From Vermamoeba vermiformis (Eukaryota), in NCBI GenBank assembly GCA_045837725.1, contig JBEWZL010000110.1, positions 1 through 46,919 on the forward strand: a stretch of DNA of 46,919 nucleotides. The letters run 5' to 3'. Shown here one piece after another: positions 1 to 40,468 of this stretch (positions are counted from its first letter, which is position 1; each line of letters starts with the position of its first letter). The position numbers and the translations under genes were made by a program. Below the pieces are notes generated by a model, which was given only the letters and a program-made list of their open reading frames with translations, was not told the origin of the DNA and did not search any database.

Positions 1-292
1 CGATTGTTCGACCAGATCCGAACAAAGACACCCCTAACACTTTGTACAACAATAAACATTTATACATTCATTATTTTATTATACCTGTGACTCTGATGAT
101 GAGATTTCCCTGAAAAAAATAATTAGGGCTATGGAGCCCTGGAATCATGCATGGTATGGGTTGCAACTTTTTCCATACTGGGCCCAGAAACCATGAGCGG
201 ACATGGACCCATTATGTGCGATGGAGACAGCGATGGTGCGTACGTAGACAGTACAATAATGGTACACGAAAATTTTATAATAAAAATTTATT

Positions 293-2767
293 TACAAGTA
301 CACCTGATTTACACGTTCCAAAGACTCAGCGGCAACATCAGCTGAATGCGAATACGTTTGTATTGTTCTTGCCTGTAATTACAACTAGTTAGTGACATGA
401 ACTTCAAAATAAAATTGACGTACCCGATGACTTGTTGGTGTTCTTGCTGTACGTTTGTATCACTAATATAATTAATTAGTACTTATTTATGCAATAATAA
501 ACTATACTTACCAATTGTCTTAGTCTTTTTGTTTTGCGGCTCATTCTCGTCGTTCGTGTCATCGTGCTTTCGCTTCTCTGACAAAGTAGTTAGAATGGCC
601 AATAGCTGTCAAGGTAACACTTACTTGAGCATGCAACTGCATCAGCCACTTTGCTAAGCTCTGCAAGTGTTGTTAGACACGTGAGATGCGAATAGTGTAA
701 AGTAGTACTTACTAGCCTTTGATGCTGCTTTGGCAGTACTCTTGGGCTTCTTCACTACCTTTGAGGACAGTGGCGTGGGCAAGGACATGTCCTGAAGCTT
801 GCCTTTCGATGCACTGGGTGCCATTGATGACTTGGAGACAACGCTGGGCACCTGCTTTGGCGTGGCATCTGGCTTTGATGCAGTGTTGGTCTTGGATTGT
901 GGCTCGGGAGTAGCTCCCGCCTTGGTGGCGTTCTTGAGTGTAGACGAGGCCTTGGGCACTGTGGATGCCTTAGAGACAGCGCTGGGCACCTGCTTTGGCG
1001 TGGTATCAGGCTTCGATGCAGCGTTTGTCTTAGATTGTGGCTCGGGAGTAGCTCCCGCCTTGTCGGCGTTCTTAGGCGTAGGTAATCCCTTGGGTGTCTT
1101 TGACGTGTCCTCAGATGAGGTCTTGGCCTTGGGAGTAGCAATGACCTTGGCTGCAGGTGTCTTGGCGTTTGTCGAAGTTGGTTTGGCCTTGGTGCTGCTG
1201 CTTGCTAATGCCTGTTCATCATCATGAGGCTGCTCGCATTGATCTGATCCATCGGGCTCTAATTAGATTGATGAGTCAATTTAATTATACACTCGTACTT
1301 ACCTTCCTCTTGGTCTTCGTCCCCGTCATCATCGAAGACTTCTTGGACTTCAGCTTCATCTTCGTCTTCACCGAGCAGATAGTCACCATCGTCATTGACT
1401 GCCTCGGCATTGTCTTGATCAGGTTGACAAGTGTCGTTCATCTCGTCTTCATCAGATGCTATAGAGCGATTGTTGGCCTGTTCATTTCGTCCTGTATGTT
1501 GTTTAGTTAAAGGTCAATAGGTTTAATTAGTTTTGACTTACTACGGTACGCAGGTACATCGTTGGCATCATCTGGGTCAGCAATGTCTGCATTATCTGCA
1601 TTATACATTAGTTCTATTTGTTTACTAGTTAACTGTTACCTTCATCAGCTTCGAGATCACCTTGTTCCTCAGCATCGACAATGTTGTACACGAGAGTCAT
1701 CAGTTCGTTAATGCCATAAGTTCCAGCCTTTTCTGCCTCCTGTTGATTAGACGCCTCTACTAAGGTGTTAATACGAAGCATATATATACAGTTAAGCAAC
1801 TTACTCGATGCCAAGATCATTATTTCTCTCGCGTACGTAACGAAGACTTGGGGGATCTCCATCGTTGCGTCGTACTTTCCAACGTACTCCCTGCAAACAG
1901 TTTGAATAAACTGTGATGCGTCAGAGCTATAGGCTTCTTCTCTAGTGTCCTTGATGCGAAGCCTGAGCTTTGGCGTTTTGAACAACTTCGTAGCCAATTG
2001 CTTTCTGAACACCCGTCTGTGCTCGTTGAAGTCTTGCCCTAGCTGATTTATATATGTTAATAATGAAGTCGCATGTCTAATCAAGAGTATAGCTTACTAT
2101 TTGGACCAGGCCTTTTGCTTGGGGAATATCACTCGCTTGGATCCAGTCTTCTACTTTGTGTTGCTCAGTCTTGATGCTTAGGAACGGATCATTAATGAAG
2201 GCCTTCGCGATTGTAACCTTGGATATCGATTTCTGTAAGAATATAGTTAGATTTGAGCAACAACAGCAAGGACAAAAGACTTACGTGGATCTGAACGGCG
2301 TCGGACTGATCGGCAATCAGTCCTTCGATCTTCTCTAGCCTCTTTGTTGGATGGGTGTCGCCAAACACCTCTTTCATGGCTGCATCAAGGTCGCCAAGTT
2401 GCACGGCAATACGGAGGCAATTCAGCCACTGTTCATAGTCAGCTGGTAACTCGATCCTACAAAAATTGGGTTAGTATTTGACTCTGAATATTTATAATAA
2501 TTTTAAATATTACCCTTGGGCCCCTGTTGTCGTTCGCTTGGCTTGGGTTTCATTTCTGAGCAAAAGTAGAATTAAGAAAATTCAGATCGGTTTGGCAGAA
2601 AATCGGAACAGGCTTGAAAGTATTTGCTTAACCAAATAAACGGTAAATTTCGATACTATGTAAATATTGCTCATAATATTTGATGGCTAAATAAAAAAGA
2701 AAAGCAATGAAACTTACCGTTGCTGATCGGCGGGCACCTGATCTCTTGCGTTGTTGTTCGAACTCAT
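293..2767 (-). CDS. Multi-exon hypothetical protein: helical N-terminal part, acidic D/E tract, K/A/P/T/S-rich (histone H1-tail-like) C-terminal part; probably transposon-encoded
   Basis: ATG at 2767 (MSSNNNARDQVPADQQR) splices in frame through exons ~2514-2555 and ~2284-2456. Further exons match ORFs 1629-2084, 1259-1441 and 654-989. CTTAC (minus-strand GTAAG) donors are visible. The 3' end is uncertain. Confidence 0.6.
835..1073 (-). repeat. Internal direct repeat, period 138 bp (46 aa), two diverged copies
   Basis: 835-935 vs 973-1073; encodes KNA(D/T)KAGATPEPQSKTN(A/T)ASKPD(T/A)TPKQVPS twice. Confidence 0.9.
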
Positions 2768-2894
2768 TGCTGACGAAAGTAGAGGTTAATCTGAAGTACA
2801 AAATAGAGAATGGTGGTTACAAAAACAAATAAAGATTAAAAATAATCAAAACGTAACGGCAAGCGTACTTACCAAAAACTGAAGTTCGAACACA

Positions 2895-5800
2895 ATGGAC
2901 TTGATCTACAAACCAACAGCAGTTAGACATCGCGTCTTTTGTAATGTATGTCATCATGATATACCTACATTACAAAAGCAGAGCCATCGTGGTACGCGAG
3001 AGCACCTGGAGAATCTTTATGAGCTTGGTAAAATGATAGAAATATTTGCTATATTAAAAAATATTAATATTAGTGATGCATAGCGTTGAAACTTTATGAA
3101 GTATATCAGCGATATCGAAATCATGCTGATTTGGTTGAAGAAGAAATTCAAAACGTCGATCCGCAGACGGAAGTCAATGTCAACGTACCTGCTCCTCCAG
3201 AGGGTACAAATTGCAATATCAAGGGCACCATGCACGAAGGATATGAATCAGATATTCTTGAAATTGCTGGCTACTCCTGGTAAGTTAACTAGTTAGAACA
3301 CGCGTGCGTTTTAATATCATTTCCTTTTTAGGAAAATTGGTGCTGAAATGAACGACAAAGGAGCAGAGATTTACCTGGAGTATTTAATCGACGAGAATAT
3401 AAAATTCATGATGGACATTGATATTTCCGCGAAGCTACGCTCATCGGCAACCAACTACACGTTAGTCAAAGGTAGTCTTTGATGTTAAGTTTAAACTCGC
3501 ACTTACCTCTCATTAAAGATATCAAGCATATCTTGCTCCAACCAAGCAAGCGATGGGTGTCCATATACTGCACCGCCCCACTTGAGCTAGGCGACTCATT
3601 CGAGTTGGATCTGATCATCAAGCCCAACTTCTACAACAGCTATGAGCGACCACAGCAAGAAGAGAAGCCACCCAAATCACGTCGAGGTCGCCCTAAAGAG
3701 TATAGAAAGTATAAGAATTTGTCTACAACGTTGCTAAATTGTTGGTATAACAACAATCGTAACAAACCACTATCAGGTACTCGTGTCACGCGTTGAACGA
3801 ATCACTTACCAAATTATTCACAGAGCGAATGCTTCAGCAATTGATCGACATACTCAAGCACGTTGGATTCATCATTGAAGATATCCCCAAGTCCGTCTAC
3901 TTGCTGCAGAAGTGTGATGAGTTTATACTTGACAGCCTGCAGCTCTACGAGTACACGTTCAACGGAACGGCTGAAGTGATCAAATACTATCGACCAGAGG
4001 ATGTTCTTCGTTATGTCCTAAACAGCAAGTCATTAACTGAGGGTATGATGTCGTAGTACACAGCAACTAGTTACTTACGCTAGTCAGGTTGGGTTTCTCG
4101 ATCGACAGACTCTGCTGTTGTCAATCATCCGTCTGATTCCGAGGCATGGAAGCTGTGCGAAGCCCACTTCGAAACGGAGGTTGAATACAGCAATGCTCGG
4201 TTGGTGTTGCCTGTTCTATGGATCGATGGCTTCGTCGGTGAGCTCACGCGCAAGAAGACGTACTGTGCATTCAGCCTGACGTTTGCCAATTTCTCTAATG
4301 AAGTAAGTATCGATTGCTCGCATAATAACGCTGCCTACTTACCATATACAGCTGATGGCCAAGCACAAATCCCGTTTTGGTATTGCCAATCTCCCGCCGA
4401 ACTTGTACAAACGCAAGGACGAGTTCATCAGAGATGCTCTCATACCGTTCTTTAAGGACCTTGAATCAAGACGATTAGAGCCTGCTTTGATCGGTGATAC
4501 TTACGCACCAATAGTTGGAAGACTGTTCGCAATCAAAGGTGCGTGTGTCTAACTAGTATATACTCATACCTGTATCAACCAGGCGACCACATGGCAAAGA
4601 TAGAGCTTGCTGGTGTTGCTGGCACGAGAGGATATCGTGGCTCTTTCTATTCTATGACAACGAGTGACGACTTCACAAACTTAGACAAGGCTCGTAGATG
4701 GCACGTTCCTCAAGAGTGTAAGTAGTAATTGCTAAGTTAAATAATAACGTTATTATTTAAGGCTTAGATATGATTATTCGATTACAAACCTTAACCGGAT
4801 CTGAGTTCACCAAGTTCAAGAAGGCGTCAGGAGTTCGTGCTGACAAGGTATGGACCAGGAACAATTAGAACCTACTAATGAGATAATTAGAGTCCGTTTT
4901 GGGATCTGCCATACTTTGTGGAAGATTTCTATCGTAATTTTAGTTCGTGTGGCTTGCATCTGCTAGCGCTCGGAATTATCAAAAGACTAGCAAGATACAT
5001 TGGTCAAAAATTAGGCCAGATATATCGGAAAAGTAAGATCGCTTCATTAGCAAACTATTACTTACCTTAGTAGATGTCAGTGAGAACATCCATAAACTCG
5101 ATCCGCCATCAAACTTTGATAAGATCTCGATGTCAGTTCATGCAGAAGGAGGAAGTACGTAACGACTAGTTAGATAGTCGATTCTTACCTTTGTTTCCAA
5201 ATTTAGAAAAGCAAGTGTTATCTTTGTCCGGCGGCCAGTGGCGAACCTTTGCTGCAGCATCGATCATCTTCAACAAGAAGTAAGTAACGAAAACAAGAAA
5301 TAGACTTTAAAATACTTACTTAATTAAAGGTACATGAATAATCATGATTACGAAGACTGGAAATTGATCATGAACAGAATTCTTTCGATCTTTCGTGCCA
5401 CGTTCACGAAGCAGGAGCTCCAGCCTGGTGGTTCGTTAGAGACTAGTATTAAGAACGTGCAAAGCGAAGCAGGAGCTCCAGCCTGGTGGTTCGTTAGAGA
5501 CTAGTATTAAGAACGTGCAAAGAGCTATGATGGTATGTGTGGATTATATCAATATTGTACTTACTTGTGGCATTCCAAGCGCGTATTCCCAGTCGACAAA
5601 TATAATTTCAAATTTCCGAACTTTGAGGCATTGATCGCTTTGCCTCGTCAAATCCTCTTCTTGGGTCCACTGCACTTCCAATCGACTGAAAGAGAAGAAG
5701 AGATGAATCGCCGCCGTCGTCAGGTCCTTCAATCAGCGAACAGAGTAAACCCGGCTTCGCATATTACTAAAGTGGTATGACTACTGATACCCTAGAGACA

Positions 5801-6492
5801 ATAACTATTAATAAAGAGATATTAGATCGAGAAGGAACGCGCAGCTGGAATGGTTGCCTTTGAGGATGATGAAGGCGAGAGCGTGACGTTCAATGAATTG
5901 TTTAATCGATCCAAGAAGAAAACCCACGCGTAAGTGACCTACTATTGTTATTAATATTGATTTTGTATCAGTAATTATCATACGTTTGGAACTACTGGCC
6001 CCAAAACAAGAATCGGACAGCTGGATCGGCCACGCATCTTCGAACTAACAGCCAACTACTTCGATGTTGATAGGCAACATATATGCCTAAAGTACGCATA
6101 CAATATCAAAGGCTTCTATTGGAGAAACAAGAAGGTGTATCCTGGCGACGAGGAGGGGCTGACTGTTGAGGTTTGTTAGTGACTCGGATCGTGTCAATGA
6201 CTAACTTACGGATCAGTTCAATAACTCCACAGTGACGGGATTGATTGAATCCTTATTCGTAGTGAATGTAGTCACTATTGCAGGGCATCGCAGGCAAGAG
6301 AACGACCTCCTCTTGTGCGCACTTCGTCCAATCGATGTTCCGAACACGCACGACACCGTTGTAGAAGGAGAACTTCAAGACGCATCAGAAGTCGAGTTCT
6401 ACCCGTTAGGATGGGGAGGGTATGAGCTAAAGCACGTTGCACGTGTCGTCAGACCATCCAGTTCGTCAGACAAAGTGTTTGTTTGGCACTGA
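2895..6492 (+). pseudogene. Plavaka/CACTA(EnSpm)-like RNase H-fold transposase, multi-exon, frameshifted in this copy
   Basis: N-terminal C2H2-like finger FCNVCHH...SHRGTREH and AT-hook-like RRGRPK. Core motifs are VLWIDGF, GDHMAKIELAG, SPFWDLPYF...CGLHLLALGIIK and FPNFEALIALPRQILFLGPLHFQSTEREE. The 58-bp duplication at 5407-5522 creates TAG at 5502-5504. Confidence 0.75.
5407..5522 (+). repeat. Perfect 58-bp tandem duplication inside a transposase exon
   Basis: CGAAGCAGGAGCTCC...AACGTGCAAAG occurs identically at 5407-5464 and 5465-5522. Confidence 0.95.
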
Positions 6493-7467
6493 TCAGATCG
6501 TGGCAAACTGAAGCACTCGAAAATATTAATACGTATTATTAATCAACAAATATTCGTCCATTGTTAAATAAACTTACTTTTAAATATTTATAGTTTGATC
6601 CGATGGGTCTGAAGATTTACTGGAGCTTCAAAAAAAATTTAATTGCAAATCCGCCAACCAAAAATTTAAACTATTATTGATAAACGCTAACTGCATATAA
6701 TATTACCTACATATTCTAGCAAATAACTATTTTTGCAAAAATCCTCCTTGCAAAGTAGATTCGCATAATCGCTCGGGTTGAGATCCTTGGTAAAAGCTGT
6801 AGTTGCATATAATGGCAGCGTACGGCCAAATACTTGCTATTTAATATAAATACTGCGTGTACAAGTCATAGAGTCCATTCATTGTGTTGTGTTTGTGGAT
6901 GCGTACGAATTGAAATTAAAAAAAGTTTAAAGTATTGCCTCATCCAGAATTGCGCTTTATTTAGTTACACCAAAGTATTGAAGCATTGAGCAATTCGATG
7001 CCCGTCCAAATACCCTTGACGGAGCAATATTGACGGATCTGACCAGTCATGGGTCGACTAAGCCTTGGTCAATGGCCTGGCATGGGGTGCGATTAAACAG
7101 TAATAATCTAGAGTACTCTTTAAAGGTTTTGAGGGTATATAACGGAGATCCACCAACCTTAATGTACCCAACCGTACCTCACTTAAGTAGCAAAAAAATT
7201 TTACCTTATTAATACAGCAATAACTATTCACTAAGGGTAATTGATTGAGCATATTGTTTTTGGAAAATTCAAAAAAAAACTTCCTGCCATCAGATCGAGC
7301 GTCCAGAAATGTACGTTAATTATCTCAATCACTACAAATAGTCTAACTGTTGGGTAACATTTGATTGAGTTTTACCTCATCAAAAGTTTATCCTGTGACT
7401 ATTGCCACGATAACTACTATCAGACATTGCCGAACATGCTCGCGACAAGTTGACCGCTCGATCTGGA

Positions 7468-8455
7468 TCACCGATGCCATTTTGGTTGTACATAACTTGA
7501 ATCATCTGAATCACTGTCTATTAATATTGTGCTTAGTCATTGCTTTTTCAAACAGGCGTTGCCTTACCACTGTTTTCTTCGATCTGATCCATTTGCTTGG
7601 GCTTTGGTATGACCACTGGCTCTTGATAGCGGAAGTCCTTGTGTTTTGTAAAGAATGTCAACGAGAAGCGATGACCTTTGATCAACTCGGCATTGCCATG
7701 GACCAACTGCCTGCTTTTAAAAAATATCGCATCGCCAGCAGCCAGCTTGAATCGACAGCCCAACTGGTGGAATACCAAGTCCCCGCCTATTTAGTCGTTA
7801 TTAATTATCACTGAATTTGACCACCGATCTTACCAGTATAATCCCCGAACGGAATGACCAAGCAGTGGCCATCTTTGTAATCACCACTGTCAATATGAGC
7901 AGAGGCAATTCCATCGATATTAATGGCCATTACTTTGAAGACGCGCGTGATGGCATTTGGATCGCCATTGACGGCCACGTAGTCTTTATACATTTGCGGG
8001 AAATGGTTCTTCACCAGGGCATCGACAGCATCATACAAGCCAATTGTACGGAATTGAGCCAACAGAGCTTCGATGCCCGGGACGTTCTTGTCTTTTGAGT
8101 GAGCCGTGGCAACAATATTCTTGCCGCCACGAGGAGACCATGCCCCTGCATGGTACGACCAGGAGTTGATCCGACCGCGTTTGTGCTTTCGTCTTTTACG
8201 CTGCAAGAACTTCAGCAATGCCTTCCAAGCCCCTCTCCAGACCACTTCTTCGATGCCTTTTTCAATGCTCTTTACGAGAGTGCGAAATTGGGGCTCTTGT
8301 TCTCCTGGCCGTAGCAGTTGTTTGTCACCCGAAAACACGGTGAAGTTGTCGACAGGCTTCGCTTGGAGCTCTTCGGCCAGATCTTTGCCCTTTTTGCCCA
8401 TCGGAAAGGGCTTTGGTGGGCTTCTGATTGTTCTAATGGACCAGCGACGGCGCAT
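7468..8455 (-). CDS. TET/JBP family 2-oxoglutarate/Fe(II) nucleic-acid base dioxygenase
   Basis: Removing intron 7787-7833 gives YHAGAW...AINIDGIASAHIDSGDYKDGHCLVIPFGDYTGGDLVFHQLGCRFKLAAGDAIFFKSRQLVHGNAELIKGHRFSLTFF. This has HxD, the distal H and the 2OG-binding R in TET/JBP spacing, plus a basic NLS-like RKRRKHKR. A probable last intron at 7506-7567 leads to a stop at 7468. Upstream exons near 8600 are possible. Confidence 0.85.
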
Positions 8456-9490
8456 CTACTTTATTGATAATAAAATTAATTAATCAAAGAAAATTACGGC
8501 AAAAATAATATTATTAATGGCATTTTAACATTATCAAGCTAATCATCCTTTTATTTAATATTAAAAAAATTGGTTTTGGCTTCGAGTTGAAACTTACGCA
8601 GTAATAACCGGCAAGAACTGTGATGGCTTAATATCCGCTATAATTAAAAAACACGACCAGTACTTGCGAAGTTCCACAAATGGTCTGATCGCTGAACACG
8701 AAAAATTAAACTATGCTAAATGGCTTAGGACTCAATTAGTAGCCTCCCAAGCGTTGGTGTTCGTGCAATGAATTTTTCTGGTTCGTCGTGGAAGAGCAGC
8801 CAGACCGAAATTGGAAACGCACACTTGTCGTGTGTTCTTCGATCAATTCCTGTACAAATCATTTTTAAAACAAACGCAGAAGAATGAAGTCAACACTGGC
8901 GTCCAAATCACCCAATAATATCTACTATGAATATATCAATAACGAGCTTGAATATGGCCTGGACTGATATAGAAGCGCCGTGTCAAGGTACTAAATGTCC
9001 CCGTGCTCTATTATTTAACTTGAATTTTAAAACCATTTTAACTGCTTTAGTATGAATTTATAATGTAAGAGGTCTTGATAGAGCGCATAATTATTTTTTT
9101 CTGTTATTTCCAAAGCTCGATCTACGATAACAACCATTTCCCACCATTTTCGCGGTTAGAAATTAAAATATCAAACGTAAAATATCTTTATTTGAATAAC
9201 AAATATTAGTCAAATTACCCCAAACTCTAATCAACTTTACCAATTCGTTGTTTCTGTGATCCCAAATCTCGCGAGGTTGACCAAGACAAACCTTGTTTCG
9301 CCAAATAAGCCGCTCTACGCGATAAAATAATGCACAATTTATCAATATTTGTCATTTTTATGCTTAAATAATTCGTACAAAGCCTTCAATACTATCGTCG
9401 TTCCGATCTTCCCCTCGATCAGCCGCCAAGCTCGCGTATTGCCAAAACCTAACATTAATAATCGCCATATATCGCTCTTAAGGCACAATT

Positions 9491-9781
9491 ATGCATAATA
9501 CTGGCGTCCAATTTCCGATTATTTTTTCCTTGCCTTGTACGTTGCGCGAGGCAAGAACGAATTATTTTCTGCAGGATCAGAAACTACGGCAGCAAAAGAA
9601 GGAACGAAATAAGGAGGTGCAAGCAGATTTCACTTACGGCGAAAATGACAGTCCTAAAGATCCTTCGTCAATATCCTGTGGTTGCAACACGATGCGCTGT
9701 CGTTGTATAAAAGGAGCAAAGGGTTGCACTGACGGATGCCGCTGTACTGGATGCAGCATTTTATGGGCTATCGCGAAGTAA
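9491..9781 (+). CDS. Small protein/exon with Tesmin/TSO1-like CXC cysteine cluster
   Basis: CGCNTMRCRCIKGAKGCTDGCRCTGC, preceded by a basic KLRQQKKER. An acceptor TTTTCTGCAG ends at 9573, so the true start is uncertain. Confidence 0.55.
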   Translation: MHNTGVQFPIIFSLPCTLREARTNYFLQDQKLRQQKKERNKEVQADFTYGENDSPKDPSSISCGCNTMRCRCIKGAKGCTDGCRCTGCSILWAIAK

Positions 9782-9789
9782 CGGAGAAA

Positions 9790-12340
9790 TAGCGCGGATC
9801 CCTTGGGGGCACGAGTGGACGCCCAAGAGCCGAGATCGCGACCAAGGACTGGGTATCAAGTAAATTTTGTTTATTATGAAAGACAGTGCCAGGTACGTAC
9901 GAGGAAAAATACTAGAAAAATTCAATAACGCATTGTATCATAGAAAACGTCGCGTAGATCCGTCAGATCAGAATGACGGATCTTAGAAGAATTATAGAAA
10001 ATCAACCAGCTGGAGGTAATATTAGGTACGTGTTAATTATGGTTTTTAAGGAAAATTATTATTCGATTACGTTCGAGGTCAGATTCGAACGCTGAGCAAT
10101 TATTAAATCCGCGAGATTAACGAGATTCTCGTTACTCGCGTTCTATTGGTAATTAACAGTACTAATTTAATTTAGCACCACAGGTTTGATTTTAACAAGA
10201 ACGTCAACGGAACGAGCAGGTAAGTTTAGTTTTAACGAGGAGATCGACCAAAACGATCAATTAAGTCTTTATTTATCGATTATTAGATAGGACAGTTACG
10301 CGCCACGACACCAAAGTCGTTACAGCGCGGGTTATTTCGAGTTGTCAAAATCGCACGCGTCATCCGAAAGCGGTTTTTAAAAAGAGAACTTAGACAGATC
10401 GACCACACGGGTCGAGTTATTTATTTGAAGCGATTTAATTGATCATTTACAGCATATAGTAACGCGCCACGGCATCAAAGCCGCTCCAGCGCGAGTTATT
10501 TCGAATTCACTGCTGAAATGATAACGCGCGTTATTTCCCTCATCAACTCAACAGATCGACCACAAGGGTCGTTATAATTATTTATTATAGAGTATTAACA
10601 AATGATAGTTACGCGCCACGGTCGCAACGGCCGTTCAGCGCGAGTTATTTGGATGAGAAACCGATGCGAACTTAGATTCGCATCAGATCGACCACAAGGG
10701 TCGATTTATCGCTATTATGGGAGATAATATTGATTGTCAACACGCGCCAAACGACTTTCAGCGTCGTTCCAGTGCGGGTTTAAGATCGCGAACAAAACGC
10801 GATCAAATCTCGGCACAGAGACCGAGATAAATCAAGGTAAGATTTTTCTATATACTTCCATTTATAATATTAATCTATCGTAAATTCAATATTTAAATTT
10901 TCAAGTAAAAATTAATTTTTAAGATCCGGATCGAGCTTAGTGCTCGTACTTTATCCATATTTTTAATTAATAACGATTAGACGATACTAAATACAATATT
11001 ATAACACTTCAATTTTTATTTAGATTGTATTAATATAAATACAGATCGAGAGGGTTCAACGCGACCCTTTGACGAAGTTAACCGGATCAGATCCAACATC
11101 TCGAACCGTCAAAGTTTCAATATAGAGCATCGTTGCTCTAAAAGTAAGTAAAACCCGTTATTTACTTCTGTTATAACTCAGTTATGTCATTTTTAGAGCT
11201 ATTATTACAGTTATTAGTGCGATCAATCGTTGACACGATCTTGTCCGCTGCAGCGGTGCGAGCTGTAAGTTAATGCCGTATTAGTGACTTATATAACTTA
11301 TTTTTTATTATTATAGGTGACAATCAATTAAGAGCCGGATTGACCGGCAAATCAAGATCAGCGCCGTCATTATTTAAGATTTCACGAGATCTCGGGACCA
11401 CAACTGGTCAAATATTGATGAATTATTCATTTATTTTCAACGTTATGTCCCCATGATATTCACCGGGGTTGCAGCGCGTGACCAGATCGTTGGATCGTGA
11501 CATCTCAGCGTTACGGTCATCAAATTGAAAGGTAAGTTATTTTGATATTATAAATTGGTACTATAATAATAAGAAATTGTAAATTTTAAATTTTGTATCC
11601 GTGTTAACGTTAAAAACAATTTCTTTATTTAGATCGAGCTTCGCGCTCGAATAAAATTTAACTAGCCATTCATTTAATAATTTAAATATTATGCTAATCG
11701 TATTTTGATAGCTTATTTCCGAACCCTTGAGCCCGAGTAACACGATCGAGAAGTACGTTAAATTTTACTTGGCGGAGTAGTAAGTAAATTACCTTAGATA
11801 TCATATTTAATAATTATAATAATCTCTTTTTATTGGTTAGCTGGCCTGACGCGTTAATCTAAGACTTAGAGCGATCTTGGATCGCGAATAAAAGTACAGA
11901 TGCGTAATTCTAAAGGTAAGTATATTTAATTCTATGTAATACTTAGAACGTACTAACGGGTATTAATACAGAACAATTAGCGAGCAGGAATGGACAAGAG
12001 GCGCGATCTGACTGCGCTAATTTATTGGTACGAACAAAGTGCGGTTTATAGTAAGTCAATTTTGTATAGCCGTATTAACTCGTTGACATCGGTAGAGTTA
12101 TTGCGTAATTGAGTTTATCGCAGATCCCCGCGGGCCCGTTGATCCCCAATTTCGGCAATTAATGCGCGCATCGATCGCGCTAAAAGTACGAAGTCAAGTC
12201 GTTATAAAATTATATTTATTACGTTCTGACATTGTTTATTTATTAGTACAAGGGTCTGGAGAAAAAATTAGCAAATTCGGTGACGGGATCTAGCGCGTTA
12301 TTAACCGCTGCTTCAACGAAGATAATAAGCCTAGGTACGA
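9790..12340 (+). ncRNA. Candidate spliced, highly structured long non-coding RNA (or very long spliced 3' UTR of the CXC gene)
   Basis: No credible ORF. Plus-strand GTAAGT donors at 10220, 11144, 11265, 11532, 11780, 11916 and 12051; five of these (11144, 11265, 11780, 11916, 12051) open AT-rich 45-61 nt segments ending in YAG. The intervening GC-rich segments contain many stem-loops. Putative exon 11841-11915 has stops in all three frames. Confidence 0.5.
10241..10780 (+). repeat. Four-unit array (~130-165 nt period) of conserved hairpin A, variable AT-rich spacer and conserved bulged hairpin B
   Basis: Hairpin A begins AGATCGACCA at 10241, 10396, 10553 and 10685. Hairpin B is CGCGCCA...CAG(C/T)GCG(G/A)GTT with CGCGC at 10299, 10463, 10612 and 10743. 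Confidence 0.9.
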
Positions 12341-12895
12341 ATTTTTTTCAATCCGTGAAGGAGGTGAGGATGAAAATCAAAACCGTGCACAACTAAAAGA
12401 TATTCGTAAGTGTCTAACTCGTCATACATACACAACTGCTGGAAAAATTGACCTGATACCGGATACCGGAAAAAACACTTCTTGGAGTAGCAATAAATAA
12501 ACTAGCGTATACGCTGCAAACAACAATAGTAACGTGGTTGTTTTTTTTGTTACACATTAAACAGATGTCAATTGTCATTCAAAACGTGCTTATTAGGTGT
12601 AATCGCGACGTGGTCGAGATTCTACGCGAGATATTTTATCGTTATATATATAAACCACGACTTATTACAGGTTTTTTTTCAGACTCAAAAACGATGTTGC
12701 ACACTTGAAGGGAATGAAGTATCTTGTCATGTCACCCATTAACTAAGTTTTATTCAATTATCCGTCCTGAAATATTTGTACGTTAGTTAAGAATAAACAA
12801 ACACGTAGGTTCTTTCAAGTACATGATCGTCAATTACTTACAAGACTGGTCACGTTTCATAGATCGAATTTCAGAATCAGCCGAAGGGTAGCCAA

Positions 12896-15792
12896 ATGAA
12901 TTCACTTTATTTGGTCGCAATATTCCTGTCGTTAGTTGCAGTAACAAATTGCCAATTACGTAAGACTGACAATTCGACCGCAACATATTTTTTTCTTTTT
13001 TTTTTTTTGTAAAACAATTCTAACTAGTTAATCCTATTGTATATTTCTAGAATTAGTCGCATCATATCAAGTATCTGGGAGTGCAATAGTAGCACGCAAG
13101 CTACGAATCGAAAGCTATGGACCTGCTCAAAATTTGTCTAACTGTGCTGCCGGGATTGATTCCTATGGCAAGATTCTGTCAGGCTTATTCATTTTTAGTG
13201 AAGGAATAATCAATCCTTCAAATTTACCCAATGCTCCATCGACTGAACCGGTATTTTCTGATGTGGATGTTGTTGACGGTACTACCGAATGTAATATTGT
13301 TAGCCTGAATGTAAGCAATGATAATACTTAATTATTTAGCAACTAAATGCTCGTAGAGTACCTGGTATGAAATCTCAGGACCAATCTTGAAATCGATACC
13401 GGTTTCAAATGCTGCCTATATTAGCGTATCTAGTTTGGCTGCAGGCCCTTTAGCTCTCGTGATTAATCAGACCGGATATATAGCACCTCTGGAGAAACAG
13501 TTTAGTTTCGAGGTTGAAAGCAGACGACTGACAGGTAGGGAACTTAAATTTAGTACCATAAGATACTTATGTGAATTAAATTAATACCTTGACATTGTTT
13601 GATGTATTTACTCTTACTACTCAGTAAAATATAACTAATATTATGATTTAACAGCGGACACTCTTATATTCGCGGCTGCTACGCCGAATGCTACCATTTC
13701 CATTGGAAATCTTACTAGTTCAGGGCAATATAATACTATCTTCGAGACTTCAGGATCAAAAGCTTCATCGATCTCAATAGCAGTACACTCCCCCGATAAA
13801 TGGGTGGTCTGTTATATAGAGTAAGTAGATTACCTTTGAATGCTTTTCGATCACTCATATTTTATTTCAGAATTCCGTGCTGAATTGCGTGTTCAGTAAT
13901 GATACAACGCAGTTTGTAAGCCTTGGAACTCAACCTACCATATACTCCGTCGCAATATCATACATTGACTGCAATCACCTATCGGTGTTGACTAGCGAAG
14001 ACTCGCGCTATACAGTAGCAATTTATGATGTAGTAACTAGAAGTCTAGTAGATACTTATCATGGCTCTGCAATGTCGATTAATGGCTTGCACCAATCTGC
14101 AACAGTCGATATGATATCAGTTATGGTGTCGAATTCGACGGGTGTTTATCTGGACATTTTAAACTGGAATCGCAATTCATCTGCTTGTACGGCAGTTGAA
14201 CCACTTAGTCCTCCTGTTGTTACCCCAACCTACTCTCCAGTTACCTCTCCAGAGTCTATTCAACCAACCACTTCACCAACCACAAACAATACTAACCTTG
14301 GCGATGCACCATCAATTTCTCCTGTAAATGCAGTTGCAGTTGGAGTAGGTGTCTCGATTCCTGTGGCAGTTGCTGGGGTGGCTATCTTCTTGCTCGTGTT
14401 CTTCTTGCGCAAACGAACAAAGAACAACAAGAAGGAAACGAATGCTGCACAGACCCAAATGAACCCTGTCACTGATCTTGACGACCCCTCAACTTCTCAA
14501 GCAAACACAAACGTCGTGAACACGACCAATTCATCGGAAATGCATCACAACAACCTTCCTGTCTCAAATGCCAATAAGGTGTACACGTCGATGGGGTTGT
14601 CGACTGTCGATAGTAACGACGACAGCTTCATAGTGGCATCAGCGGTGGATCACCTTCCAGACATTGACAAGCGACTTCACATCCCATACAAGAGTCTCAT
14701 GTTCGTAAAAGAGATTGGTGCCGGTAGTTTTGGCAAAGTGTATTCAGGGTGAGTTTGACGATTAATTTGGTCCGGAATATGCTTACTAACTCTCATAGTG
14801 AATGGCGTGGAGCAAAGGTGGCAATCAAAGTGAATAATCAGATTACTGATGTCGATGGATTCTTGGCCGAAGCAAAACTAACTCTGTACAAAAGCAACGA
14901 TTAGACATATGGCCATTGATTCTAACGATCTTTTACTCTAGCGGCATTGCACCACATCCAAACCTTGTTCAAACTTTCGGAGTGAGTCTTGATGGACCCA
15001 ATCCATGCATTGTTCTGGAGTATTGTGGCGGTGGTAGCTTAGATCAACTCTTATTTGATATTGACCAGCCAGTGCCAGTTGAGAAACAACGCGAGTTTGC
15101 GATTAAGATCGCATACGGTCTTCTCCATCTTCACAATAACAACATTGTGCATCGTGATCTTGCTGCAAGAAACATTCTAGTGAGTTTTGACACTTACGAT
15201 ACCTATTTGCTAACAAGTGACTTTAGTTGACGAATGATCGACAACCGAAGATTAGTGACTTTGGAATGTCTAGATTGTTGCAAGAAGAGAACTCGAAAGG
15301 TCAAACTAAAACAAACTTTGGACCAATCAGATGGATGGTACGATGATACATTAATTTTTATTGCACACTGTTAACAAGCACATGCTTTTCGATAGGCACC
15401 AGAGAGTCTAAAAGATCGATCATACAGTATTAAATCGGACGTTTGGACATTCGGTATTACTGGTAATCCGTTCGCTAAAATCATTTCAAATGTAACTTAC
15501 TAACACACTTCAAAAAAGTGAACGAGATCATTTCACGACAAGAGCCACATACAAACGAAGATCAACTCACAATTGCTGCTCGCATTCGAGATTATGCGGT
15601 CACTCCAGATATTCCTGAAAACGCGGATCCAGTGCTTGTTGAAGTAATCAATCTATGTCTGAAGGCCAATCCGAATGAACGACCGGTAAGTCTAGAGTGA
15701 ATATTATTACTGTTAAATTAATTTCTCTGTCGTAGACAATGGAAGATGTTTGCATTCTGCTGCGATCAAAGATAGACACTAATGAGAATTGA
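12896..15792 (+). CDS. Single-pass receptor protein kinase, tyrosine-kinase-type (TK/TKL) catalytic domain
   Basis: Signal peptide MNSLYLVAIFLSLVAVTNC, then an ectodomain, a P/T/S stalk and TM AVAVGVGVSIPVAVAGVAIFLLVFFL-RKR. Kinase motifs across short introns: GAGSFG, VAIK, HRDLAARN, DFG, PIRWMAPE, SDVWTFG. Confidence 0.9.
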
Positions 15793-20145: not shown

Positions 20146-23100
20146 TTATGCGCGCGTTGCTATCCAATACAACGCGTTTGTTTTGCTATTTCCGTTGTCC
20201 CAGCCATTGAGTGTATTGATGTTGGTCCATGCAGTCGCCTTATCCAACACAGCTTGGGCCATGTAGATAAAGCCACGCCAGCCGACTTGAATCGTTGGAC
20301 TAGCGCGTGTGAGAGCAGTGGACAAGGTTGGATAAACCGTGCTAACCCAAGCGCTGTTCATATATTCTTCCGTGATGGGCGTGAAAGGCATCATTTGAAT
20401 GCCAATGATGTACTCGATGTTGGCTCCGAACCAAGTAGCAAAGTCAACCTTCGTGCCCCAAACAATACCAACACAACCGTTGTCAGCAAATACTTGATCG
20501 TAGACGTCATTAGACTTGTTGTCCATGTGCCAGTACTTCTTAGTCGAGCGGATTTCTTGTGCGAGCATCAAGCGACCAAGATCGCGCAAGTTGGCGTTGT
20601 TGGACACAAGACCCCAGAGGTACATGCCATAGTAGCCATTGATAGATTCTGACGACGACTCTTGGTTCTTCACGTCACCAAACTCGAACAGACCTGAGGC
20701 CCATGAGTGACCGGCGTACCAGTCCTTCATACGCGTGACTGGGAAGTAACTATCATGCACTGGATTGGCATAGGCACGCACAAGATCGTTGATGGCAGGT
20801 GCCCAAGTCGTCGCCCAAGCACTGTCACCCTTGGCCACCACTGCTGAGGCATACACAAAGTAGCCAAAGTGGAAGTGAACGTCGTTGTAGTAACCAAGTC
20901 CATAATCGGCACCACTGTCTTTAATGCCGTTCGATGAAGTGACACCACCCCACGTGCGATCGTAAATGATTTTGTCTGAAGTTTGACCGTTAAACCAATT
21001 CTGCAGCAAAGTCTTCAAACGATTGCGAATGTTTGACGCAATCGTTGTCTCGCCAATTTCATCGGCAATAAGCGCCAAGCGTGCAACAGCAGCCAAGTTC
21101 TTGCCGCTGGTGTATGTGTCACTAGCTGTTTGAGTCATCGACTGGTCTGCTTGAAGCGCCGTGCGAATGGACTCAACGTACTGCGTTGGAATACTTCTCG
21201 GGGCACCCCATGTTATTGTGGTAAGTTGCTCGGTCATTTTCCAGCTCAGGCCTACAAGTCCAGACATCTTGCCCTTCATCGTGACATAGGCATTTGTCAT
21301 CACGTATGTAACGCCAGTCATCATGTCGCGGTGATGAGGAAGTGTCATCATCAATGGTGCAGAGCCATCTTCAGTGATGTAGTCGAATTGAAGGACAGCA
21401 CTATCACCCGTCGCGGTCCAGCCGACCTTAGATGCAATGGGCACGCTGTTCTTGTACTGGTCTAATGTAGTTTCGAATGAAGAGTCCGTCAAACAGACAC
21501 CACGCAGAACTCCAGAGTAAGTGCTCGTGGCCGTGAGCGTTGATCCAGACCAAGTGAAAGTGATTGAATTACTAGCGTAGAGAATCCAAGTCTGGCCATT
21601 GTTGAGTGCAATCTTAAACTTGGTACCAGTGACCGTCGAGCTAGTCGCACCGTTGATTGAAAGAATGGCGTGCACGGTAGTTATAACAGGAGTAAGTCCG
21701 TCCCATTTAGTAGTGATGTATGGACTGCCTTGAACCAAAGGAGCAATCATAGAGTTGGCACGAGTGCCGTAGTTGATGGTGTTCGCATCATAAGTAGTGG
21801 GTGGATTGTTCGACCAAATCAGTGTGACTGACAGTAAGTCCCAGTCCAAAACCCGTCGCTGGGCAATTGTTTCTTTCACCAACATAGCAAAGTTTTCGGT
21901 GAAGACTGTATTGCCATTGGTAGCAGTGAAACTGCGAGCGGAATAACTGACTTGAACACCAGTGTTACGCACTTCAACAATATACGGACTGGTGACAATA
22001 GGCATGTTGCCTTGATTGAGCCACATGTTCGTGTGCCATGAATTAGTCGGATACGGCATCGGGATTGGGCCGAGCAAACTCGCAGGTGGAGTGAGTGGGT
22101 GATTCATGAGAAACGGGTAGAACGGCGCCGAAGTTGTGATCGCATTGCCAACACTACGACGTGAAGTCGTGACAGACACAGGAGCAGAAACTGGCACAGA
22201 AACAGGTGTGGCAACAGGGACTGACACGGGTGTGGCAACAGGTGCTGCAACGGGCGCTTTCACTGGTGGAGACACAGGCGCTGCAACGGGTGCTTTCACT
22301 GGTGGAGACACAGGCGCCGCAACGGGCGTGGCGACAGGTGCCGTAATGGGAGGTGACACAGGGGTGGAAACAGGAACAGATACAGGGGTTGCTACTGGTG
22401 CTGTAACCGGTGGTGAAGTAGGCGTTGAGACAGGAGTCGCTACAGGCTCGGAGATGGGTGTTGACGTAGGCACGTTCACAGTGGTGCTCGAGATTTCAAA
22501 CATCCACTTGCCTGCTACATTGACGTTTGAATCTAGTTCGAGAGTAGAGCCCACGAGTGATGTGCCGCTGCTGGGCAGTTCATAAGCCATGCTTGTGACA
22601 CCGGCCGAATTTGCATTGAAGCCTGCACGAGCATATAGACCGTGAACTTGAGTGGTACCAATATCTGCATAGAGCTGTTAGTTACGTGGCATCATTGACT
22701 GTTAGGCTACGTACGATTGTAGAATAAGATGGCAAAGCTCTGTTGACCATCAGTAGCAAGCACAATTTGAAAAGTGTTCAAGTTGTCGCTGAAACGCTTA
22801 TATTTAGCGACTTTAAACCAAGTGGCAATGACTGCACTGGTAGCGGAGAAATCGAGCCCCGACAAATCAAAATTCTCTTTCACATCGTCACTGATGTTGA
22901 ACAGCGTGTCTTCATCTGAAACCACGCGGTAGTAAATGGAATTAGCGCCGTTGGGCAGAGTCTGACGGTTGTCTACACGCAATCAATCAGCAACACAATA
23001 GCAACAATAGAAATGAGCAACGTACCATAATCAAGCCACAAAGGAGCAATGAAGGTGACATTTTCAATAGGAAATGCACGCGGATCCAATTGGCTGAACG

Positions 23101-39018: not shown

Positions 39019-40468
39019 TTTATAATGGCAAGATTGAAGTCATTAATATACAAATAAGGTTGATAATAATATACAAGCTGTTCTGTTGTCCAATAAAAAT
39101 ACGCGAGCACAATAAATTTTTTAGTTACCGTTACTAATACCACGCACCAACACTAATACTTCCGCTAACACTAATCACCATTCGCTAGTGACTTGCACCT
39201 ATTCGGCGCTTCGCAATTGATACTGTACAACCTGCTCAATACTCTTCAGACACGCGATGAGTTTTAGGAAAGCCCAAGCAACCGGTTGCTCGATAAAGGA
39301 AGAAGTTATTATTGTCAAATATTATTATTTTATGGTTTGACCTCACTCCGCACCTATTTTATGAAAAAACTTCAAGCAAAATGATTTTGTTAAATTAATT
39401 ATTATTTTTTCGTTGTTCGACCGAACCTAACAATAGGGCGATGGAAGCTGCATACGCTAAGACAACAAATAGCACGGTCGGATGGATGACTATTAATCCG
39501 ATAAAGGTCAAATCGGCAATAAAGATCTTGGCATATTCAATTGACTATTCATGCGACCCTCACCGCCATATTGTTGGACAGAAAGAAGCTAGTGTTCTGA
39601 GATCGTATGATACTACGCGATGCCAATCCCTGCGATTTAAAGGTACTACACGTTTACCTTCGGGTGCTGGATCTCGGCTCTAAGATATCCTTTCACATCA
39701 GTATGTAGACCATCTCGATTTACAAAGTGGCGTGTACGGAACCTCTTGGGCACACCACATCAGCCTTAAATGGAAATAGACCGCCGTAAATAATCGGAGG
39801 GATCCTTAACCTCAGCGGAGCATGGTTACCTAATCCCGTTGAGCCTATGATATCAATAATGGTAGATCCAAATATTACAAAATAGCTAATACCCACCGTT
39901 GTAAAAGGTACACAAGCATCCGAGAGCAAAACAACGAGGGGAACTCCACCCATGGCTATTATTTTGGACTTCAGACCAGCTAGTAACCTTATAATTAAGT
40001 AATAATCCTCGCAGGTAAAACGAGATACTTCTTGTTTTGGAAGTAGAATACCAATCCTCGCGCGAGATTATCTCGAGGACGGCAGATCTAACTGTTTCAG
40101 ACCAAACTCAAACGGCAATTGGCGGGTCGGAAAGCCCCCGAGACCCACATCCCTACCTCAGTACCTAAGTCGCAGATTTTAACGATTTTTCTGTTGCTTC
40201 TTCTGCTACGACTGTCCTAAAATAGAAATGCCGTTCACTGAACCTAGCGCTAAAATTTGTCTTTTTAACAATAAAATAAATCGCATCGGAACGCCGATAA
40301 CTGGTGTTTTGAACTCCACTAGGGTAAGCATATCGTAAAGTTAAAATCTTACGATAAAATATTTTAACGCTTGTCCCTGATTGTGGGACCGCGGCAAGGT
40401 GGGGCAAATTTAATTTTGACCATTTTTGTTCCCTCAGCTTTACAACACCATACACGAGCACAATATAT

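Follow-up and report, generated by a model that had tools for sequence, protein, structure and literature searches.

The window analysed here, a stretch of 46,919 nucleotides, carries a TET/JBP-family dioxygenase gene in convergent orientation to a transposase-like gene, with 1 kb between them. The locus raises the question of whether the two move together and, if so, where the moving unit ends. We consider it roughly 60% probable that a multi-copy Plavaka/CACTA (CMCT) DNA transposon with TET/JBP cargo is represented by one copy in the window, likely in a non-fungal opisthokont host. The features on which the argument draws are as follows.

112..125 (+), left arm of a candidate terminal inverted repeat, GAAAAAAATAATTA; the 113-125 reading is flanked by CTG
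654..2553 (-), multi-exon gene (gene model) with no family match, transcribed divergently from the transposase gene
2895..6492 (+), transposase-like gene, 17 exons and 16 GT..AG introns of 38-56 nt, ~930 aa
5407..5522 (+), 58-nt unit duplicated perfectly in tandem within a transposase exon, 100% identity, 2.0 copies
7548..8455 (-), TET/JBP-family 2OG/Fe(II) dioxygenase gene, two exons, 286 aa, intact-looking
8455-7834 (-), TET exon 1; 7786-7548 (-), TET exon 2, stop included
7833-7787 (-), TET intron, 47 nt, GTAAGA..AAATAG
8662..8826 (no strand), ~165-nt segment
9088..9101 (-), right arm of the candidate terminal inverted repeat
9491..9781 (+), ORF of 96 codons whose eight cysteines form a CXC-like cluster (ORF list and gene model)
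9940..11150 (no strand), non-coding hairpin array rich in CpG; the short hairpins have 6-10 bp stems, and many of them begin with GATC

The original prediction had joined the minus-strand gene, the transposase, the TET gene, the cysteine-rich ORF and the hairpin stretch, in this order, into a single element. All five features are there, and the TET gene does lie beside a transposase-like gene; the CXC family assignment and the grouping of all five into one mobile unit were not confirmed.

The TET/JBP dioxygenase gene

The spliced product contained the complete Fe(II) facial triad, H-x-D...H, as H187-I-D189 (exon 1) and H237 (exon 2). The 2-oxoglutarate-binding Arg, within R-x-S after the distal His, was found in R247-F-S249. 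Across 24 aligned TET relatives, the H-x-D and distal His columns were invariant, and the set of H-x-D, Asp at H+5, distal His and R-x-S, all present in the window protein, was invariant or nearly so (in alignment A3, S did not vary and R hardly did). The triad aligned with that of NgTet1, and R-x-S with the NgTet1 segment GWRIGL. The profile alignment also placed D192 at H+5, as in NgTet1, a position that presumably has a role in 5mC recognition. The active site thus looks intact, as the original prediction had it, and so does the TET gene of this copy.

Exon 1 used as a query retrieved 36 relatives at E ≤ 1e-3 in a search of 1.84 billion representatives. Pfam Tet_JBP (PF12851) matched 26 of the 35 scanned relatives at E ≤ 0.01, with 16 of the 35 above the 34.9-bit cut-off; the two window exons, scanned separately, reached 15.3 and 20.0 bits against the same cut-off. 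The spliced protein aligned across the exon junction with P0005 (42% identity over 228 aa, E 8e-57) and with P0006 (52% identity over 152 aa). When the family profile was compared with PDB sequences, the top four matches were NgTet1 (7e-7, 1e-6) and CcTet (1.5e-5, 1.6e-5), and the remainder was noise. For the fold comparison, the AlphaFold model of P0005 (pLDDT 85.6) stood in for the window protein; it matched CcTet (E 1e-12, TMq 0.74), NgTET1 (1e-10), CMD1 (1e-9) and TET2 (1e-7), with AlkB and FTO ranking lower. Judged by the relatives' Pfam matches, the profile ranking and the fold ranking, the enzyme belongs within TET/JBP and not outside it, in agreement with the original prediction.

The transposase-like gene

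Inspection of the transposase-like protein by eye revealed an N-terminal C-x2-C...H-x5-H finger, LWIDGF, GIANLPPNLYKRK, GDHMAK and GPLHFQSTEREEE. The LWIDGF-bearing exon was the one of 17 to match Pfam Transposase_21 (PF02992), with E 0.033 and 13.8 bits where the cut-off is 28.6. The scan of the 17 separate short exons gave no Plavaka (PF18759) match and left 16 of them without a relevant match, and PDB searches with two short exons returned nothing relevant. For the exon at 4090-4302, 28 of the 30 named Atlas matches fell within the PF18759 Plavaka-bearing set (best score 0.95; 186 of 256 features common), at a recognition value of 1826, where scores count as strong from 2300. The one weak Pfam match and the Atlas matches weakly suggest a Plavaka/CACTA-like transposase; the one informative exon of the gene looks Plavaka-like and weakly tnp2-like, short of profile significance.

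The expected CMCT C(2)C and H(3-4)H sites, read by eye in one gene model, were occupied by G-S-F-Y-S-M and K-F-P-N-F-E-A-L. A domesticated gene would likewise be consistent with the 16 introns and the absence of these zinc motifs. The 58-nt duplication shifts the reading frame, and a stop follows at ~5505, ahead of the GPL..ER motif; skipping one unit restores a single continuous spliced frame of 930 codons. In consequence, the window copy probably needs other copies for movement.

Copies and extent of the mobile unit

Fragments 95-96% identical to the window were present, among the matches listed, in the environmental runs X4 and X6, at 6327-6500 (7 differences, X6), 7122-7189, 7572-7917 (17 differences, X4) and 8154-8336 (9 differences, X6). 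By sequence, these diverged fragments look like additional copies of TET, of the spacer and of the end of the transposase, seen on short, low-depth contigs; they could stem from a related strain instead of paralogues. Moreover, the P0001 protein is 96% identical to TET exon 1, and the identical sequence of a relative (P0006/P0047) lies on 15 contigs, the pattern expected of a repeat. Two related metagenome loci were 3-kb contigs carrying the TET gene alone. The segment at 8662..8826 is probably a separate small repeat: its X6 bin depth was 36.6, against 0-5 in other bins, and, among the matches listed, contig loose ends surrounded it (8662, 8822, 8826) and a 2197-nt X4 contig matched the window at this stretch alone. 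Searches of the segment for tRNA and Rfam families gave no match.

Ends were assessed by the CMCT criteria of 5'-CA..TG-3' termini and 2-5 bp target duplications. The single candidate terminal inverted repeat comprised 14 bp and paired 112-125 with 9088-9101; a 13-bp reading is flanked by CTG at either side. In the 13-bp reading the right end is ..CTG and the left end is CTG.., not CAG..; the candidate termini are A-rich and not 5'-CA..TG-3'. Markov simulations yielded a perfect inverted match of at least 13 nt in 81 of 300 cases, and in 6 of 300 once a 2-5 nt duplication was added, and the 14-bp repeat by itself is no better than chance. Its right arm lies beside a CpG jump, with o/e of 0.99 in 113-9100 and 1.79 in 9101-12890, and beside two X4 breaks, a contig loose end at 9086 and a joint from 9106 (among the matches listed). 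Within X6, again among the matches listed, DNA to the right of 9500 was near-identical to the window, whereas the inside of the element was 4-5% diverged. The likeliest unit would span ~9 kb (113-9100) and hold the transposase, TET and the divergent 2553-654 gene. The ends at 293 and 12357 in the original prediction were not confirmed.

The product of the 654..2553 gene is helical in its N-terminal part and includes a long acidic stretch; its tail is rich in K, P, T and S and is encoded in part by a 138-nt tandem repeat at 826-1094. It had no Pfam match and no homologue by word search, and the Atlas gave leads at 0.85 only.

A unit of 113-9100 excludes the CXC ORF and the hairpin array, which would then be flanking DNA. 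The ORF has the cysteine spacing C-x-C-x4-C-x-C-x6-C-x3-C-x-C-x2-C, and we take the spacing alone to resemble CXC; the scan of 9482-9778 gave no Pfam family at E ≤ 0.1, including Tesmin/TSO1-type CXC (PF03638) and KDZ-associated CxC. The hairpin array is real: nine distinct GC-rich perfect hairpins lie in 9940-11150 (a density of 7.4 per kb, compared with 0.88 in other DNA of the window), and the DNA fold of 10240-10835 had z = -7.10, with none of 100 shuffles equally stable. About three 150-nt repeat units occupy 10274-10730 within it. We also observed that a hairpin at 5-24 is similar to the one at 10070-10091. The CpG shift at ~9100 and the X6 divergence contrast count against the ORF and the array as element parts, and both probably lie outside the mobile unit.

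CACTA elements possess subterminal repeat arrays, and a larger composite CACTA-like transposon, from left of the window edge to ~11200-12890, is accordingly worth weighing, although we regard it as unlikely. The CXC ORF would then be a DNA-binding accessory gene, and the hairpins would be subterminal repeats bound by element proteins. Similar DNA may flank both sides, as the resemblance between the 5-24 and 10070-10091 hairpins indicates, and the chance-level score of the 112/9101 repeat also leaves room for wider ends. In the available part of a preprint on red-algal Plavaka elements, inverted-repeat arrays adjoin a 2OG-oxygenase accessory gene (10.1101/2025.02.11.637652). Against such an extent stand the near-doubling of CpG o/e and the ORF's want of a family match, as well as the inverted-repeat comparison of 1-2895 with 9790-12895, in which no pairing rose above chance. 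The X6 matches listed argue in the same direction: 9549-9755, in the CXC ORF region, differs at 1 position, and 11521-11849, 13260-13472 and 13477-13720 at 0 each, in contrast to the 4-5% divergence inside 6327-8336.

Still less probable is that there is no mobile unit and that a host TET gene lies by chance beside a transposase-derived gene, possibly domesticated or decaying: neither ends nor a target duplication are proven, and the transposase gene is intron-rich like host genes, equals the host in CpG content and by eye lacks the expected Cys/His motifs, but TET and the transposase 3' end recur in diverged copies while flanks from the same run are identical (among the matches listed), P0001 represents a TET paralogue or allele, the 15-contig sequence is repeat-like, and the fresh frameshifting duplication speaks against purifying selection on a domesticated gene.

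Host, proposed role and known systems

The host had been described as apparently non-fungal, and the neighbouring genes do look so: a receptor tyrosine kinase carries HRDLAARN and PIRWMAPE, and a NIDO-GH81 gene and Raptor are further neighbours. These genes point to a non-fungal opisthokont protist, seemingly a unicellular relative of animals, as the likeliest host. In the 9-kb transposon that we favour, TET would oxidise 5-methylcytosine on the element or more widely, and this oxidation would counter 5mC-based silencing, a role already put forward for the TET-bearing transposons of fungi. If any mobile element actively erases a host silencing mark, such transposons are the clearest candidates, and in the portions of the literature searched they are documented in three fungal groups only. 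A non-fungal opisthokont copy would broaden the host range of this strategy, would provide a system for testing TET anti-silencing against 5mC-based transposon defence, and bears on the spread of small TET genes among eukaryotes. The window TET, being small and intact-looking, should be easy to express and assay. More speculatively, and at long odds, a TET-carrying Plavaka-like transposon that is or recently was active in a unicellular animal relative with 5mC silencing might strip the mark by its own TET and serve as a vehicle for horizontal transfer of small TET genes among fungi, holozoans and other protists, with the adjacent CpG-rich hairpin array as its preferred landing or binding site.

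Among characterised enzymes, NgTet1 from Naegleria gruberi (PDB 4LT5, 5CG8/9) and CcTet from Coprinopsis cinerea (PDB 7VPN, 8JKK) share the small stand-alone TET fold; they were the top profile and fold matches, and their H-x-D, Asp at H+5, distal His and Arg align with those of the window protein. They differ in overall sequence, with 13-16% identity to the modelled homologue P0005. Iyer et al. in 2014 reportedly linked KDZ (Kyakuja-Dileera-Zisupton) and other fungal transposons to TET/JBP. The likeness to KDZ/TET systems lies in small TET/JBP genes that spread in a lineage-specific manner with DNA transposons; those systems are fungal, whereas the window host is probably not a fungus, and the Pfam scan of window ORFs and transposase exons detected neither a KDZ transposase nor a KDZ CxC domain.

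Giant Plavaka repeats have been reported in Amoebidium appalachense, a unicellular animal relative in which transposons are silenced by 5mC (PMC11244446). Unlike the window, they carry intron-poor tyrosine-recombinase gene clusters, and the main text of that paper mentions no TET gene (two word-start matches to 'TET', both in the reference list). Red-algal Plavaka elements of Bostrychia, as presented in the accessible part of the preprint (10.1101/2025.02.11.637652), have accessory genes PAG1-3 and adjoining tandem arrays of inverted repeats. They resemble our locus, whose host looks non-fungal too, in combining Plavaka with more than one accessory gene, a 2OG-dependent oxygenase among them, and with inverted-repeat arrays alongside; the original claim that the extra components had not been linked to such elements before is therefore too strong. 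PAG3 is a ParB-fused 2OG oxygenase, not stated there to be TET/JBP, whereas the window enzyme is a plain TET/JBP domain; moreover, the hairpin array of the window is probably not part of the mobile unit.

The closest counterparts are fungal. As far as the consulted sections of Kojima 2025 go (PMC12730594), TET is carried in fungi by Plavaka and ten other transposon lineages, including PlavakaB in Agaricus bisporus and Gymnopus confluens. PlavakaB has 5'-CATCA..TGATG-3' termini and duplications of 2-3 bp, and its enzymes are of the PE type, in which the motif is H-x-E; the window, in contrast, has a host that looks non-fungal, an H-x-D enzyme, A-rich candidate termini, and a transposase weakly assignable to Plavaka in which C(2)C and H(3-4)H are, by eye, seemingly missing. 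Shared with PlavakaB, in those same sections, are a TET/JBP gene adjoining a transposase that in the window is putatively Plavaka-type (CMCT), a DNA element that here is probably multi-copy, and a proposed role in escape from methylation-based silencing. The comparison suggests that the window element, whose extra components are putative, is of the same type as the TET-bearing transposons of fungi but belongs to a new host lineage.

The dioxygenase gene and its active site

The locus holds a genuine TET/JBP gene next to what is probably a Plavaka-like transposase gene, accompanied by extra diverged copies, in a host that is probably a non-fungal opisthokont. This would place the known fungal type of TET-carrying transposon in a new host lineage. 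The first three genes listed below lie within a candidate mobile unit at 113-9100.

About 2553-654, minus strand: gene A, its product helical in the N-terminal part, with a long stretch of acidic residues and a tail rich in lysine, proline and threonine
2895-6492, plus strand: transposase-like gene, ATG at 2895, stop at 6490-6492; 17 exons and 16 introns of 38-56 nt in a dynamic-programming model
8455-7548, minus strand: TET/JBP dioxygenase gene (286 aa), ATG at 8455, donor GTAAGA at 7833, intron of 47 nt to AAATAG at 7787, stop at 7548-7550
5407-5464 and 5465-5522: perfect 58-nt tandem duplication inside the transposase-like gene
9491-9781, plus strand: CXC ORF, with a real-looking eight-cysteine cluster, outside the candidate unit
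12893-15700, plus strand: gene for a receptor-type kinase; the product has a signal peptide, an ectodomain rich in Ser/Thr/Pro, a single transmembrane segment, and the motifs HRDLAARN and PIRWMAPE...SDVWTFG
20149-22982, minus strand: NIDO-GH81 gene with a complete GH81 endo-beta-1,3-glucanase (Pfam E 1e-96 and 1e-38; NIDO 2e-19)
40358-40795, plus strand: fungal-type Zn2Cys6 binuclear cluster (E 2e-6, 28.2 bits, cut-off 21)

Judged from its sequence, the product of 8455-7548 belongs to the TET/JBP enzymes and its active site is intact. Scanned exon by exon, it scored 15.3 and 20.0 bits against the Pfam Tet_JBP profile, both below the cut-off of 34.9. A full HMMER pass with exon 1 over 1.84 billion representatives returned 36 proteins at E ≤ 1e-3. 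With the near-identical P0001 left out, 26 of the 35 relatives matched Tet_JBP at E ≤ 0.01, 16 of them above the cut-off, and the match was absent in nine. P0001 alone was found by a word-index protein search with the same exon. Against PDB sequences, exon 1 gave chance matches only, e.g. HasA; the sole two matches of exon 2 were to NgTet1 (E 0.07 and 0.10), with the His and Arg aligned. The best four PDB matches of the family profile were NgTet1 (7e-7 and 1e-6) and CcTet (1.5e-5 and 1.6e-5), the rest being noise.

The H-x-D motif, an Asp at H+5, a Gly, the distal His and the Ser of R-x-S were invariant in 24 relatives, and the Arg was nearly so. The corresponding residues of the window protein, H187, D189, D192, H237 and R247-x-S249, are all present, in keeping with the intact site of the original prediction. 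The fold was assessed on the relative P0005. Its AlphaFold model (pLDDT 85.6, pTM 0.86) matched CcTet (E 1e-12, TMq 0.74), NgTET1 (1e-10), CMD1 (1e-9) and TET2 (1e-7), with AlkB, FTO and prolyl hydroxylases ranking below these TET-type structures. The relatives' Tet_JBP matches, the family profile and the P0005 fold all bear out the predicted grouping of the dioxygenase within TET/JBP.

The relatives P0005 and P0006 continue across the exon junction, which confirms the splice; in local alignments, the spliced product was 42% identical to P0005 over 228 aa (E 8e-57) and 52% identical to P0006 over 152 aa. Several relatives end precisely at the end of the window's exon 1, namely the ORF-called P0001-P0004 and P0007-P0010. 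The environmental TET relatives at 1055-1898 of L001 and 836-1679 of L002, two metagenome loci, are ~40% identical, and their intron sits in the corresponding position. Taken together, the relatives' ends and these matching introns indicate that the intron position is conserved across a diverged eukaryotic family.

The transposase-like gene and its companions

The G+C content of the window is ~42%, and its open frames are all short under any simple reading. Read in three frames, 2800-6600 resolves into exons split by short GT..AG introns, most of which hold an ACTTAC-like branch motif. RNA support amounted to 2 and 0 partial reads over 1-14000 in two runs with the window's species label, in which the presence of the organism was not established. 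No Rfam family or tRNA was found in a scan of the whole window.

A continuous transposase frame (2790 nt, 930 codons) requires that one unit of the 58-nt duplication be left out. With both units in place, the frame shifts and meets a stop near 5505, ahead of the GPLHFQSTEREEE stretch, so this copy is probably defective, unless the duplication arose as an assembly artefact. Splicing out exactly one unit was ruled out, since the unit offers no AG/GT. A 37-nt GTGGTT..CAAAG intron, which would rescue the frame and add 7 codons, was set aside too: its donor is poor and all modelled introns are longer.

The assignment to Plavaka/CMCT, at roughly three chances in four, draws mainly on one exon. In a scan to E 10, Transposase_21 matched one of the 17 exons (4090-4302, bearing LWIDGF) with E 0.033 at profile positions 3-50. 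For the same exon, 28 of 30 named matches in the ESM Atlas fell in a set in whose best cluster 48% of the members carry PF18759 Plavaka. The Atlas score was 0.95 with 186 of 256 features shared, and the recognition value of 1826 lies under the tool's level for strong scores. By eye, the motif order is that expected of CACTA-type enzymes: the D in LWIDGF, NLPP..R.K, the D in GDHMAK, and GPL...ER. According to PMC12730594, CMCT transposases carry C(2)C and H(3-4)H; at these places the gene model reads S-F-Y-S and N-F-E-A-L in a tentative by-eye alignment. PDB searches with two transposase exons gave chance matches or none, and a word-index search among longer proteins with the transposase ORF 4084-4452 gave no relative. 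The Plavaka/CACTA-like transposase of the original prediction is probable, the family evidence being thin.

Gene A, which may belong to the element, lies within the candidate unit and has a 340-bp divergent promoter region in common with the transposase gene. It matched no Pfam family, and a word-index search with its exon returned no relative; its only Atlas leads, at 0.85, pointed to unrelated families and were rejected. A 138-nt tandem repeat (826-1094, 1.9 copies, 85% identity) codes for its K/P/T/S-rich tail. The CXC ORF gave no profile match in the Pfam scan. The five-part "selfish epigenetic module" that had been proposed is unsupported as stated.

The structured non-coding region of that proposal is real, judging by hairpin density and fold. 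Nine distinct GC-rich perfect hairpins occupy 1.2 kb at 9940-11150 (7.4 per kb vs 0.88 per kb elsewhere), and the fold z-score is -7.1. The region includes about three 150-nt units with two palindromic motifs in each, has a CpG observed/expected ratio of 2.1, and gave no Rfam match. Similar hairpins (GTTCGA..CAGAT..CGAAC) flank the candidate unit at 5-24 and 10070-10091. The likeness of the two hints at insertion of the element into hairpin-rich DNA, or at arrays of this kind on both sides of a larger element.

Ends and extra copies of the candidate unit

No second copy or fragment of the element was found elsewhere in the window. An inverted-repeat scan of the left 2.9 kb against everything right of the transposase picked out a single perfect match of 14 bp, between 112-125 and 9088-9101, which, taken as 13 bp, has CTG on both flanks. 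First-order Markov simulations produced a perfect match of at least 13 nt in 81 of 300 cases, and in 6 of 300 together with a flanking duplication of 2-5 nt. Since chance gives such matches, this inverted repeat alone is no evidence for element ends. Apart from this borderline 14-mer, terminal-repeat scans found nothing above shuffled controls.

Three independent observations coincide at the same place: a jump in CpG, contig breaks, and a change in divergence. The CpG observed/expected ratio is 0.99 over 113-9100 and 1.79 over 9101-12890, with a host average of 1.10; no part of the window is CpG-depleted. Two contigs of X4, an environmental sequencing run, break at 9086 and 9106. In X6, a water metagenome, the pieces 9549-9755, 11311-11519, 11521-11849, 13260-13472 and 13477-13720 show 1, 1, 0, 0 and 0 letter differences from the window, vs 7 and 9 letters for 6327-6500 and 8154-8336 and 17 for the X4 piece 7572-7917, all among the records listed. 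We read these pieces as unique flanking DNA of the same organism together with additional copies, diverged by 4-5%, of the transposase end, spacer and TET gene. P0001, a TET exon with 96% identity from a different contig, supports this reading, and the identical sequence of one relative occurs on 15 contigs. The diverged copies rest on short contigs of low depth and could instead reflect a second strain. Extra copies of the element remain our preferred reading, and the CpG jump, the X4 breaks and the diverged copies beside a near-identical flank offer the strongest indication at hand of transposase and TET moving as one, in a unit that would end near 9100.

We must also note several features of this region. 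The X4 joint from 9106 to 11533 is anchored on one side by only 21 letters and falls within an inverted repeat of AT-rich sequence; its 2426-nt skip was discounted and the left break point kept. The 30-letter loose end preceding 9086 is absent from the window. The stretch 9101-12890 is ~3.8 kb of AT-rich DNA, with a CpG observed/expected ratio of 2.11 within 9941-11150. A ~165-nt segment at 8662-8826 has an X6 bin depth of 36.6 (0-5 elsewhere), and a 2197-nt X4 contig matches the window there only. The segment gave no tRNA or Rfam match and probably represents a short repeat of high copy number, for example a MITE or SINE. Both related metagenome loci are 3-kb contigs with TET only, too short for neighbours, and no related locus was found in genome contigs or viral contigs.

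Host neighbourhood and published systems

The neighbouring genes fit an opisthokont, probably a non-fungal one, for instance a unicellular holozoan. The HRDLAARN and PIRWMAPE...SDVWTFG motifs of the 12893-15700 kinase mark the tyrosine-kinase group. P450 and Raptor are further neighbours, and the Raptor exon reached 167 bits with the human protein, 148 and 141 bits with two fungal entries, and 134 bits with the plant entry. None of 150 additional small host ORFs matched Pfam at 1e-4. The joining of NIDO to GH81 at 20149-22982 is an unusual domain pairing, and the Zn2Cys6 match is at odds with the otherwise holozoan-looking neighbours. An early fungus is a possible host in view of the GH81 and Zn2Cys6 genes. 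The non-fungal host originally predicted is favoured by the kinase motifs, NIDO and the Raptor scores, subject to that possibility.

In the cited part of Kojima (2025, PMC12730594), TET-carrying transposons comprise 11 lineages, including Plavaka, and are restricted to three fungal groups. Outside fungi, Plavaka elements are described, in the parts cited, from Archaeplastida (PMC13519894) and Amoebidium (PMC11244446). The red-algal Plavaka elements carry three accessory genes, including a ParB-2OG oxygenase, and adjoin inverted-repeat arrays, according to the portion cited (10.1101/2025.02.11.637652). Among the listed matches and passages of the literature on Plavaka, TET/JBP and holozoan 5mC, no TET/JBP-carrying transposon was reported outside fungi. 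As far as the cited part of PMC12730594 describes them, the TET-carrying Plavaka elements of fungi resemble our locus in the pairing of a TET gene with a transposase gene, here probably of Plavaka type, whereas the host of the window is probably non-fungal.
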